Position numbers and translations under genes: made by a program. 64,000 nucleotides of DNA from assembly GCF_988243305.1 (NCBI RefSeq), contig NZ_OZ547136.1. One strand, 5' to 3'. Numbering within the stretch: position 1 is the stretch's first letter; each line of letters begins with the position of its first letter. The notes below the pieces were generated by a model that searched no databases, had not been told where the DNA came from, and saw nothing but the letters and a program-made list of their open reading frames with translations. Shown piece after piece: positions 58,746 to 64,000 of the stretch.

Positions 58746-60446
58746 GTGATTGTTAAACGACCCGTCTCGGCCAGTCTGGCCCGGGCCTTTTTTTACATTG
58801 TGCTGCTGTCGATTCTTTCCACGGGTATCGCTCTGCTAACGCTGGCGAGCAGTTTACGCGACGCTGAGGCTATCAATATTGCCGGATCGCTGCGTATGCA
58901 GAGTTACCGCCTGGGCTACGACTTGCAAAGTGGCAGTCCACAACTCAATGCACATCGCCAGTTGTTTCAGCAGGCACTGCATTCACCGGTATTAACCAAT
59001 CTCAACGTCTGGTATGTGCCAGAGGCAGTAAAAACCCGCTATGCGCATCTGAATGCCAACTGGCTGGAGATGAATAATCGGCTCAGCAAGGGTGATTTGC
59101 CGTGGTATCAGGCCAATATTAATAATTATGTTAATCAGATAGACCTGTTCGTACTGGCTTTACAGCACTACGCTGAACGCAAAATGCTGCTGGTGGTGGC
59201 GATTTCCCTGGCTGGCGGCATCGGTATTTTCACGCTGGTCTTTTTTACTTTGCGCCGCATACGCCATCAGGTGGTTGCCCCGCTGAATCAGCTGGTTACC
59301 GCCAGTCAGCGTATTGAACACGGACAGTTCGACTCGCCACCGCTGGATACCAGCCTGCCGAATGAGCTTGGCCTGCTTGCAAAAACCTTTAACCAGATGT
59401 CGAGCGAGCTACATAAATTGTACCGTTCGCTGGAGGCGTCAGTAGAAGAAAAGACCCGCGATCTCCACGAGGCCAAGCGTCGTCTGGAGGTGTTGTATCA
59501 GTGTTCGCAGGCGCTGAACACCAGCCAGATTGATGTGCATTGTTTCCGCCATATTTTGCAGATTGTTCGCGACAATGAAGCGGCTGAATATCTGGAGTTA
59601 AATGTCGGTGACAACTGGCGGATTAGCGAAGGGCAGCCAAACCCGGAATTGCCGATGCAGATTTTACCGGTGACAATGCAAGAGACGGTTTACGGCGAAC
59701 TGCACTGGCAAAATAGTCACGTTTCATCATCAGAACCGCTGCTTAACAGTGTTTCGTCGATGCTGGGACGCGGTTTGTACTTTAATCAGGCGCAGAAGCA
59801 TTTTCAGCAGTTATTGTTGATGGAAGAACGTGCGACCATCGCCCGCGAATTGCACGACTCGCTGGCTCAGGTACTTTCTTACTTACGTATCCAGTTGACG
59901 TTACTGAAGCGTTCGATACCGGAAGATAACGCCACCGCACAAAGTATCATGGCCGATTTCTCCCAGGCGCTGAATGATGCTTATCGGCAGTTACGCGAGC
60001 TGTTAACTACTTTCCGCCTGACGCTACAGCAGGCGGATCTCCCCTCTGCGCTACGTGAAATGCTGGATACGTTACAAAATCAAACCAGCGCCAAACTGAC
60101 CCTCGACTGCCGTCTGCCAACCCTGGCGCTGGATGCGCAAATGCAGGTGCATTTGTTGCAAATTATTCGCGAAGCGGTGCTGAATGCGATGAAGCACGCC
60201 AACGCCAGCGAAATCGCCGTTAGCTGCGTCACTGCGCCGGACGGCAATCACACGGTTTATATCCGTGATAACGGGATTGGCATCGGTGAACCGAAAGAAC
60301 CCGAAGGTCATTATGGTCTGAATATCATGCGCGAGCGCGCGGAACGGCTGGGTGGGACGCTGACTTTTTCACAACCTTCCGGCGGCGGCACGTTAGTGAG
60401 TATTAGCTTTCGCTCCGCGGAGGGTGAGGAAAGTCAGCTGATGTAA
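58746..60446 (+). CDS. narQ: Nitrate/nitrite sensor histidine kinase
   Basis: 566 aa from GTG (MIVKRPVSASLARAFFYIV...); H-box ELHDSLAQ; ORF track starts 5 codons upstream. Confidence 0.95.
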   Translation: MIVKRPVSASLARAFFYIVLLSILSTGIALLTLASSLRDAEAINIAGSLRMQSYRLGYDLQSGSPQLNAHRQLFQQALHSPVLTNLNVWYVPEAVKTRYAHLNANWLEMNNRLSKGDLPWYQANINNYVNQIDLFVLALQHYAERKMLLVVAISLAGGIGIFTLVFFTLRRIRHQVVAPLNQLVTASQRIEHGQFDSPPLDTSLPNELGLLAKTFNQMSSELHKLYRSLEASVEEKTRDLHEAKRRLEVLYQCSQALNTSQIDVHCFRHILQIVRDNEAAEYLELNVGDNWRISEGQPNPELPMQILPVTMQETVYGELHWQNSHVSSSEPLLNSVSSMLGRGLYFNQAQKHFQQLLLMEERATIARELHDSLAQVLSYLRIQLTLLKRSIPEDNATAQSIMADFSQALNDAYRQLRELLTTFRLTLQQADLPSALREMLDTLQNQTSAKLTLDCRLPTLALDAQMQVHLLQIIREAVLNAMKHANASEIAVSCVTAPDGNHTVYIRDNGIGIGEPKEPEGHYGLNIMRERAERLGGTLTFSQPSGGGTLVSISFRSAEGEESQLM

Positions 60447-60521
60447 TGCCTCCGACTGACCAAAGAATACTGGCCCTTAAAGTTCAGTATAAAAGGGCAT
60501 GATAATTTACATTAACTCCTT

Positions 60522-60539
60522 TTTTTCTCCACGATTGGC
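60522..60539 (+). promoter_or_regulatory. BaeR-box-like site in the acrD promoter region
   Basis: TTTTTCTCCACGATTGGC about 70 bp upstream of the acrD start; matches the BaeR consensus TTTTTCTCCATDATTGGC as I recall it, with one mismatch. Confidence 0.6.
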
Positions 60540-60609
60540 TCGTACCTTGCCGCTACAGTGAAGCAAGTCAAGCCTACAACGATACGCAGAAACACGAGGT
60601 CCTCTTTTA

Positions 60610-63600
60610 ATGGCGAATTTCTTTATTGATCGCCCCATTTTTGCCTGGGTGCTGGCAATCCTGTTGTGTCTGACAGGTACCCTGGCGATTTTTTCATTGC
60701 CCGTTGAACAATACCCCGATCTCGCGCCACCGAATGTGCGAGTGACCGCTAACTATCCCGGCGCATCGGCCCAGACGCTGGAAAACACCGTGACCCAGGT
60801 TATCGAGCAAAATATGACCGGCCTCGATAATCTGATGTATATGTCGTCTCAGAGCAGTGGCACCGGCCAGGCATCTGTCACTTTAAGTTTTAAAGCAGGC
60901 ACCGATCCGGACGAAGCCGTGCAGCAAGTACAAAACCAGCTGCAATCAGCCATGCGAAAGTTACCGCAGGCGGTGCAAAATCAGGGCGTGACGGTGCGTA
61001 AAACCGGCGATACCAACATTCTGACCATTGCCTTCGTCTCTACCGATGGTTCGATGGATAAACAGGATATTGCCGATTACGTTGCCAGTAATATTCAGGA
61101 TCCGTTAAGCCGCGTGAATGGCGTCGGGGATATCGATGCCTATGGTTCGCAATATTCCATGCGTATCTGGCTGGACCCGGCGAAACTCAACAGTTTCCAG
61201 ATGACGGCTAAAGATGTCACTGATGCCATTGAGTCACAGAACGCGCAGATTGCGGTTGGGCAACTTGGTGGTACACCTTCCGTCGATAAGCAGGCGCTCA
61301 ACGCCACCATTAACGCCCAGTCACTGCTGCAAACACCAGAACAGTTCCGCGATATCACCTTGCGGGTGAATCAGGACGGTTCAGAGGTAAGGCTGGGCGA
61401 TGTCGCCACCGTCGAAATGGGGGCGGAGAAATACGATTATCTTAGCCGCTTCAATGGTAAGCCAGCCTCCGGGCTGGGGGTAAAACTGGCCTCCGGCGCG
61501 AACGAAATGGCGACAGCGGAGCTGGTGCTCAATCGTCTCGACGAGCTGGCGCAGTATTTTCCACACGGACTGGAATACAAGGTGGCGTATGAAACCACCT
61601 CGTTTGTTAAAGCCTCCATTGAAGACGTGGTGAAAACGCTGCTGGAAGCTATCGCTCTGGTTTTCCTCGTTATGTATCTGTTCCTGCATAACTTCCGCGC
61701 CACGCTGATACCCACTATCGCCGTGCCGGTGGTGTTGATGGGAACCTTCTCCGTACTTTACGCCTTCGGTTACAGCGTCAACACCTTAACCATGTTCGCG
61801 ATGGTGCTGGCGATTGGTCTGCTGGTGGATGACGCCATCGTGGTGGTGGAAAACGTCGAACGTATTATGAGTGAGGAAGGACTCACTCCTCGCGAAGCCA
61901 CACGTAAATCGATGGGGCAGATCCAGGGGGCACTGGTCGGGATTGCGATGGTGCTTTCGGCGGTATTTGTACCAATGGCCTTCTTCGGCGGCACCACCGG
62001 TGCCATCTATCGCCAGTTCTCTATTACCATTGTTGCGGCGATGGTGCTGTCAGTACTGGTAGCGATGATCCTCACTCCGGCTCTGTGTGCCACGCTACTT
62101 AAGCCACTGAAAAAGGGTGAGCATCACGGGCAAAAAGGCTTTTTTGCCTGGTTTAACCAGATGTTTAACCGCAACGCCGAACGCTACGAAAAAGGGGTGG
62201 CGAAAATTCTCCACCGTAGCCTGCGCTGGATTGTGATTTATGTCCTGCTGCTTGGCGGCATGGTGTTCCTGTTCCTGCGTTTGCCGACGTCGTTCTTGCC
62301 ACTGGAAGACCGGGGCATGTTTACTACCTCGGTACAGTTGCCCAGCGGTTCAACCCAACAACAGACCCTGAAAGTCGTTGAGCAAATCGAGAAATACTAC
62401 TTCACCCATGAAAAAGACAACATCATGTCGGTGTTTGCCACTGTTGGTTCTGGCCCTGGGGGTAACGGGCAAAACGTGGCGAGAATGTTTATCCGCCTGA
62501 AAGACTGGAGCGAACGCGACAGTAAGACCGGCACCTCGTTTGCCATTATCGAGCGTGCAACGAAGGCGTTTAACAAGATTAAAGAAGCTCGTGTTATCGC
62601 CAGCAGCCCGCCAGCAATTAGCGGTCTTGGTAGTTCTGCAGGTTTTGATATGGAGTTGCAGGACCACGCTGGAGCGGGTCACGATGCGCTGATGGCAGCA
62701 CGTAACCAGTTGCTGGCGCTGGCGGCGGAAAACCCGGAGCTAACCCGTGTGCGCCATAACGGCCTCGACGACAGTCCGCAGTTGCAGATTGATATCGACC
62801 AGCGTAAAGCTCAGGCGCTGGGCGTTGCTATCGACGATATTAACGACACACTGCAAACCGCCTGGGGTTCGAGCTATGTGAATGACTTTATGGATCGCGG
62901 TCGCGTGAAGAAAGTCTATGTGCAGGCAGCTGCGCCATATCGCATGCTGCCAGATGACATCAATCTCTGGTATGTCCGAAATAAAGATGGCGGCATGGTG
63001 CCCTTCTCTGCTTTCGCGACCTCACGCTGGGAGACAGGCTCGCCGCGTCTGGAACGCTATAACGGTTATTCTGCGGTTGAGATTGTTGGGGAAGCCGCAC
63101 CGGGGGTCAGTACCGGTACGGCGATGGATATTATGGAATCGTTAGTGAAGCAGTTGCCAAACGGCTTTGGTCTGGAGTGGACGGCGATGTCGTATCAGGA
63201 GCGGCTTTCCGGCGCGCAGGCTCCGGCGCTGTACGCTATTTCCTTGCTGGTGGTATTCCTGTGTCTGGCGGCGCTGTATGAAAGCTGGTCGGTGCCGTTC
63301 TCGGTAATGCTGGTCGTGCCGCTGGGGGTTATCGGCGCGCTGCTGGCAACCTGGATGCGCGGGCTGGAAAACGACGTTTACTTCCAGGTGGGCCTGTTAA
63401 CGGTCATTGGTTTATCGGCGAAAAACGCCATCCTGATCGTCGAGTTTGCTAACGAGATGAACCAAAAAGGCCACGACCTGTTTGAAGCGACGCTCCACGC
63501 CTGCCGTCAGCGTTTACGCCCGATTCTGATGACCTCGCTGGCATTTATCTTCGGCGTATTGCCAATGGCAACCAGCACGGGTGCCGGTTCCGGTGGTCAG

Positions 63601-63723
63601 CATGCGGTGGGTACTGGCGTAATGGGCGGGATGATTTCGGCCACTATTCTGGCTATTTACTTCGTGCCGCTGTTCTTTGTGCTGGTGCGCCGCCGCTTCC
63701 CGCTAAAGCCGCGCCCGGAATAA
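60610..63723 (+). CDS. acrD: RND-family aminoglycoside/multidrug efflux pump
   Basis: 1037 aa [41 protein letters not shown]..., AcrB/AcrD architecture. Confidence 0.97.
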
Positions 63724-63762: not shown

Positions 63763-63821
63763 AACTTTCCGATTAAGAACCTGCTCAGCAGGTTCTTGCT
63801 GTTTGTACTTTGTCTCAGGAA

Positions 63822-63881
63822 TTACTTACGAAGCATAACTTCGATAAAGTCTTTCCAGTTCCCCAGTTCACGTTCAATCAT
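63822..63881 (-). CDS. ypfM: 19-aa small protein
   Basis: Minus-strand ORF MIERELGNWKDFIEVMLRK*, recognised as YpfM next to acrD; below the ORF-track length cutoff. Confidence 0.8.
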   Translation of the reverse strand: MIERELGNWKDFIEVMLRK

Positions 63882-64000
63882 AACAACCTCTCTTATAATT
63901 ATGGGTATTCTACGGAAACAATATACCGTGGTGAAGCTAATTTACTCGATTGCTGCGATGACTACCTCCGGGGGACAAACCTTATGTAAATACTATGGTC

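Follow-up and report, generated by a model that had tools for sequence, protein, structure and literature searches.

The pho box consists of two direct repeats, each 7 bp long, and an A/T-rich spacer of 4 bp, which gives an 11-bp period, and represents the operator layout of the OmpR/PhoB family of regulators. BaeR is a winged-helix member of this family, its structure matches being PDB 4B09 (BaeR itself), MtrA, RegX3, PhoP, KdpE, PhoB, BasR and CpxR; no structure of a BaeR-DNA complex was found. AcrD, whose gene is under BaeR control, exports aminoglycosides and anionic beta-lactams. The acrD gene is induced through BaeSR by indole, Cu, Zn and tungstate, and this induction belongs to the envelope-stress route that leads to adaptive tolerance of drugs and metals. 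It is described as belonging to the core BaeR regulon and is among the four BaeR sites reported in the literature.

The published BaeR consensus, TTTTTCTCCATDATTGGC, is attributed to Nishino 2005 where it is quoted in PMC3915751 and PMC3799227, and a 9-mer core, TCTNCANAA, is given as that of Yamamoto 2008 where it is quoted in PMC3799227. 'Direct regulation' of acrD by phosphorylated BaeR is cited in a passage of PMC10052836, and the support for direct BaeR binding at E. coli acrD comes from such secondary citations. Outside E. coli, the acrD upstream fragment of Erwinia amylovora was shifted by BaeR in EMSA (Pletzer and Weingart 2014, PMC3915751). A similar tandem was described for the regulator DzrR of Dickeya oryzae, whose DNase I footprint upstream of desAB, an RND pump operon, reads TCTCCAT-CATA-TCTCCAT-ATT (PMC10052836).

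In this study we followed up a sequence-only reading of a 64-kb stretch of DNA, referred to as the window, in which a BaeR-box-like 18-mer had been noticed upstream of acrD. The outer coordinates given there coincide exactly with the narQ-acrD intergenic region. The upstream neighbour narQ has the same orientation as acrD and its stop codon ends at position 60446. The features of the region, including those deduced below, are as follows.

58746-60446, + strand: narQ (open reading frame and RefSeq annotation in matching E. coli genomes; start placed from the 1701-nt length)
60447-60609, 163 bp: narQ-acrD intergenic region
60487-60501, + strand: literature-listed CpxR site of acrD, GTATAAAAGGGCATG (exact match to the entry in PMC9600279 Table S1)
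60506-60511, + strand: TTTACA upstream element, near-invariant across species
60515-60525, + strand: distal 11-bp unit, ACTCCTT plus TTTT, a putative distal BaeR half-site (direct repeat of the proximal unit)
60522-60539, + strand: 18-mer TTTTTCTCCACGATTGGC in the published BaeR-box register (17/18 to the published consensus)
60526-60536, + strand: proximal 11-bp unit, TCTCCAC plus GATT, the BaeR-box core (at least 95% conserved in 10/11 columns)
60554-60559, + strand: TACAGT, predicted -10 hexamer (fixed spacing and conservation)
60596-60600, + strand: GAGGT, ribosome-binding site of acrD, 9 nt before the ATG and near-invariant in the alignment
60610-63723, + strand: acrD, RND efflux permease of 1037 aa (open reading frame and RefSeq annotation in matching genomes)

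Near the window end, a 59-aa open reading frame with a TTG start (63810-63989) begins 87 nt past the acrD stop codon.

The 18-mer had been taken to match the BaeR recognition sequence with one mismatch. Comparison with the published consensus confirmed this: 17 of 18 positions agree, the sole difference being C for T at position 11. When the whole window was searched with the consensus and as many as 3 mismatches were allowed, the acrD box was the only match. None of 100 dinucleotide-preserving shuffles gave a match with at most 1 mismatch; by calculation, 2.2e-4 such matches are expected per window (both strands) and 5e-7 in the + strand of the intergenic region. The 9-mer core is represented at acrD by TCTCCACGA, which shares 6 of the 7 specified bases and carries G for A at position 8. 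The box is co-oriented with acrD and ends 70 nt before its ATG, a distance that had been judged plausible from the sequence, and the orientation is the same as that of the BaeR boxes of mdtA and spy. The motif is the already-published BaeR site of acrD, a correct but known observation; as textbook knowledge, finding of the site itself adds nothing new.

The suggested BaeSR control of acrD is likewise supported, both by the documented induction by indole, Cu and Zn through this system and by published RNA-seq of a baeR knockout. In LB with 5% ethanol the knockout had about 7.5-fold less acrD transcript (log2FC -2.91, p 2e-39), which speaks against a lack of BaeR dependence, named beforehand as a ground for rejecting the site. 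In the unstimulated baeR knockout the change was not significant (log2FC -0.20; RNA-seq of the ChIP-exo study discussed below).

For the cross-species comparison, acrD with 1.2 kb of upstream DNA was collected from 80 Enterobacterales species, with 72 unique sequences used for column counts, and 55 sequences were aligned with MAFFT, conservation being given as the mean majority frequency. In nearly all 80 species the best BaeR-box match is located upstream of acrD on the coding strand; its distance to the ATG is 67-74 nt in most Enterobacteriaceae and 92-286 nt in Yersinia, Serratia, Erwinia and Pantoea. A relaxed core pattern was present upstream of acrD in 70 of the 80 species versus 0.135 expected from shuffles, and with looser anchoring the proximal unit was found in 79/80. 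Anchoring of all loci on the proximal unit revealed a module of the form TTTACA-yTw-[TCTCCTy wwTT]-[TCTCCAC GwTT]-17 nt-TAnA[G/T]T. The spacer between the proximal unit and TAnA[G/T]T is exactly 17 nt in all 79 anchored species, while the ATG lies anywhere from 81 to 300 nt away; since the spacing is exact despite this variation, the elements behave as one promoter unit.

Within the module the mean majority frequency was 0.98 for TTTACA, 0.97 for the proximal unit, 0.93 for the GCTAnAGTG block (60552-60560) and 0.87 for the distal unit, in which conservation reaches 95% or more in 7 of 11 columns. TTACA (60507-60511) is invariant in 72/72 sequences and the first T (60506) occurs in 68/72. For the composite 60506-60536 as a whole the mean conservation was 0.92, versus 0.39 for the narQ-proximal intergenic DNA (55 species). 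The conserved unit is larger than the 18-mer. The 3' GGC of the latter (60537-60539) is poorly conserved among acrD orthologues (0.64) and is common to the three E. coli sites, acrD, mdtA and spy; the published consensus may specify too much at its 3' end and too little on the 5' side. The CG at 18-mer positions 11-12, including the supposed mismatch, is conserved in 71/72 and 69/72 sequences, and G at core position 8 is kept in 69/72. With its degenerate D, the consensus resembles a majority rule drawn from acrD, mdtA and spy, from which it would follow that the 'mismatch' is simply acrD's own version. The acrD box is then presumably one of the few sites behind the consensus and not a look-alike. 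The new element of this work is the footprint itself, which, across the 80 Enterobacterales species, refines the definition of the operator and brings to light an invariant TTTACA and a T-to-A change at 60515 that is specific to E. coli. Its value is modest: it shows which bases of the 18-mer are under selection, adds a second half-site and a fixed distance to the -10, and yields a testable idea why one in vivo binding study missed acrD in K-12.

In the K. pneumoniae orthologue table (PMC3415461) aegA (b2468) is directly followed by acrD (b2470), and a narQ orthologue does not appear between the two. The promoter module of acrD is intact in Klebsiella species all the same, and is therefore independent of the upstream neighbour.

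The distal ACTCCTT (TCTCCTy elsewhere) and the proximal TCTCCAC are arranged in direct orientation, 11 bp apart, and each is followed by 4 A/T-rich bases. No sigma-70 consensus promoter was detected in a scan of 60300-60800, as expected for an activator-dependent promoter. TACAGT at 60554-60559 is the predicted -10 hexamer, from which transcription would start near 60566; with this assignment the BaeR units span about -51 to -30 and TTTACA about -60 to -55. Placement of the tandem units where the -35 element is absent, at a fixed 17 nt from the hexamer, suggests PhoB-like activation from the -35 region. A mapped acrD start within the intergenic region was found neither in the literature search nor in the published start maps (E. 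coli, Klebsiella), for which reason both the -10 assignment and the class-II geometry are what we infer from spacing and conservation. The published E. coli map, obtained under non-inducing conditions, assigns acrD a weak start of 3 reads inside narQ, 624 nt ahead of the ATG (about 59986). Given this start and the lack of a narQ terminator, acrD may receive some transcription by read-through or from within narQ.

Very probably the acrD promoter has a BaeR operator of which the 18-mer forms the promoter-proximal part, acting in the following way. Phosphorylated BaeR would bind as a head-to-tail dimer to 60515-60525 and 60526-60536, each unit presumably comprising a 7-bp TCTCCwy repeat and a 4-bp A/T-rich spacer. 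Such a dimer would have its centre some 40 bp before the predicted start near 60566, taking the place of the missing -35 element, and would bring RNA polymerase to the TACAGT hexamer in the manner of PhoB at pho boxes. CpxR, with its reported site at 60487-60501 just upstream, would only enhance the BaeR-dependent activation. This last step is in line with the reported rise of acrD expression by CpxR only when BaeR is present. The CpxR-listed GTATAAAAGGGCATG agrees weakly with GTAAA-N5-GTAAA, in 6 of 10 specified bases, and has a mean majority frequency of 0.66 across species.

The experimental record also contains results pointing to indirect action. In ChIP-exo performed with MG1655 in 5% ethanol BaeR peaks were obtained at spy and mdtA, whereas none was present at acrD, which the authors class as indirectly regulated. 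RNA-seq of the same study shows a decrease of acrD in the cpxR knockout too (log2FC -1.88), and the nearly identical TCTCCAT tandem footprinted by DzrR indicates that the motif is not unique to BaeR. The box could thus be bound by another OmpR-family regulator of similar specificity or by CpxR, dependent on BaeR in its level or activity. However, the acrD box is essentially identical to the ChIP-positive boxes of spy and mdtA, the Erwinia acrD fragment was shifted by BaeR, reviews and primary citations describe direct regulation with a strictly BaeR-dependent action of CpxR, and a weak or transient site can drop below the ChIP-exo threshold; we therefore regard a purely indirect role of BaeR as unlikely.

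It is very unlikely, in our opinion, that the block is a mere core-promoter feature for RNA polymerase, UP-like or -35-like, with an incidental resemblance to the BaeR box. Its T/A-richness, its overlap with the predicted -35 and UP region and the fixed 17 nt to the -10-like hexamer would suit such a feature, but no -35 consensus is present, acrD is silent without stress and BaeR-dependent under stress, and the 18-mer recurs at two other BaeR-controlled promoters at other distances from the start codon. That the motif is a pyrimidine-rich string arisen by chance, or the T-run that would end a narQ terminator, is rejected on conservation and statistics. The motif does include seven consecutive T, preceded by DNA in which a weak stem can be drawn, yet only about 2e-4 such matches are expected per window and the block is conserved in Klebsiella, with no narQ in the K. 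pneumoniae table. Neither a G+C-rich hairpin with a T-run, the mark of an intrinsic terminator, was found in 60300-60800, nor a fold better than that of shuffles (z-score -0.64), nor an Rfam match, at E up to 1, indicative of structured RNA in the intergenic region or leader.

Several other assignments of elements in this region were considered and rejected. A MarA/SoxS/Rob marbox reading of GCATGATAATTTACA was discarded, as AYNGCACNNWNNRYYAAAY had no match with up to 3 mismatches in 60447-60609; its window-wide count, 118 versus 128 expected, is at the chance level. The 18-mer does not contain GTAAA, and TTTACA supplies only one GTAAA, on the minus strand, with no partner, so neither of them forms a CpxR tandem; the pattern GTAAA-N5-GTAAA at 3 mismatches is too common to inform. 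Inspected by eye, TTTACA as a -35 hexamer had no suitable partner element at 16-18 bp, and the same applies to TGaTAATTT as an extended -10, the TG of which is not conserved outside Enterobacteriaceae. TTTACA fits no BaeR unit, CpxR tandem, marbox or usable -35 hexamer.

Variation of the site within E. coli was followed in complete genomes, of which 5424 of 5426 were matched by a query of 501 nt surrounding it. Among the 5386 genomes with a match to the 62-nt block 60499-60560, 5335 (99%) agree with it in every base; the adjacent leader is identical in 4301 of 5425 (79%), and the 62 nt upstream, 60437-60498, in only 346 (about 6%). Only 406 genomes were matched by megablast at all over 60437-60498. 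The narQ-proximal intergenic DNA (60447-60498) is unusually polymorphic in E. coli, and a cluster of SNPs separates the window from K-12 there.

At 60515, where the distal unit begins, the window and K-12 both have A, as do at least 5335 of 5386 complete E. coli genomes; in 72/72 unique sequences of other species, E. albertii included, the equivalent base is T. Judging from this distribution, T-to-A at 60515 appears to have become fixed on the branch of E. coli sensu stricto, at a position that is invariant elsewhere. The record NZ_JAATUR010000003.1, labelled E. coli SCPM-O-B-8794, carries T at the equivalent base. Its identity to the window is only 92% over acrD DNA and 94% over narQ, and it therefore probably belongs to a cryptic Escherichia lineage and not to E. 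coli proper. A weakening of BaeR binding by the change at 60515 is speculative, because mdtA tolerates C at the equivalent position.

We put forward, tentatively and as a rather doubtful proposal when taken in all its parts, that the acrD operator is a composite of at least 31 bp (TTTACA and two phased BaeR units, locked 17 nt from the -10) of which the 18-mer is only the proximal part, that the fixed A60515 could have weakened BaeR occupancy in E. coli, and that TTTACA may bind a further partner. If true, weaker occupancy at acrD would explain the absence of a ChIP-exo peak despite the BaeR-dependent expression.

Among the described BaeR sites, the upstream region of K-12 acrD has an 18-mer identical to TTTTTCTCCACGATTGGC of the window. 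The K-12 boxes of mdtA, TTTTTCTCCCTTATTGGC, and spy, TTTTTCTCCATAATTGGC, show 0-1 mismatches to the 18-mer consensus, lie in the same orientation to the gene and belong to the same regulator as that of acrD; CG at 18-mer positions 11-12 is an acrD feature, unlike the mdtA and spy boxes. At all three loci a second CTCC repeat is located one or two helical turns upstream, with a repeat spacing of 11 bp at acrD, 10 bp at mdtA and 22 bp at spy. The distances from the box end to the ATG are 70, 53 and 138 nt, respectively. At mdtA the 17-nt spacing is absent, TAnnnT being found at 7, 12 or 15 nt, and TTTCAT occupies the place equivalent to TTTACA of acrD. At spy, both the CpxR site and a sigma-70-like promoter, the latter identified by eye, are found far downstream of the box. 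With mdtA and spy differing in this way from acrD, BaeR uses no single fixed geometry.

The K-12 spy region contains four 11-bp phased units, TCTCTCA-TCAC, TCTCCAT-CAAA, TTTTCTT-TTTT and TCTCCAT-AATT, and a TACACT hexamer exactly 17 nt past the last one, the same spacing as at acrD. This arrangement hints at a separate BaeR-driven spy start upstream of the CpxR site and the sigma-70-like promoter.

PhoB promoters resemble acrD in their repeats with an 11-bp period, in the lack of a -35 consensus and in the activator family. The pho box differs in the repeat sequence and lies closer to the -10, compared with 17 nt at acrD, where the -10 is predicted. In the DzrR operator, which precedes an RND pump operon, TCTCCAT repeats recur with the 11-bp period seen at acrD; DzrR is a different regulator, reported to be independent of BaeR and of phosphorylation (PMC10052836).

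The acrD gene of Erwinia amylovora is an orthologue, for which both the EMSA with BaeR and induction by BaeR overexpression were reported (PMC3915751). The motif published there, TTCTTCACGATTACTGGC, appears to be about 3 nt off in register with respect to the orthologous alignment, in which the proximal unit of the Erwinia group is TCT(C/T)CACGATT. In Erwiniaceae, unlike in E. coli, the module is situated 124-300 nt from the ATG; the loci of the Erwinia group nevertheless carry TTTACA, the tandem units and TAnAGT in the same arrangement as E. coli acrD.
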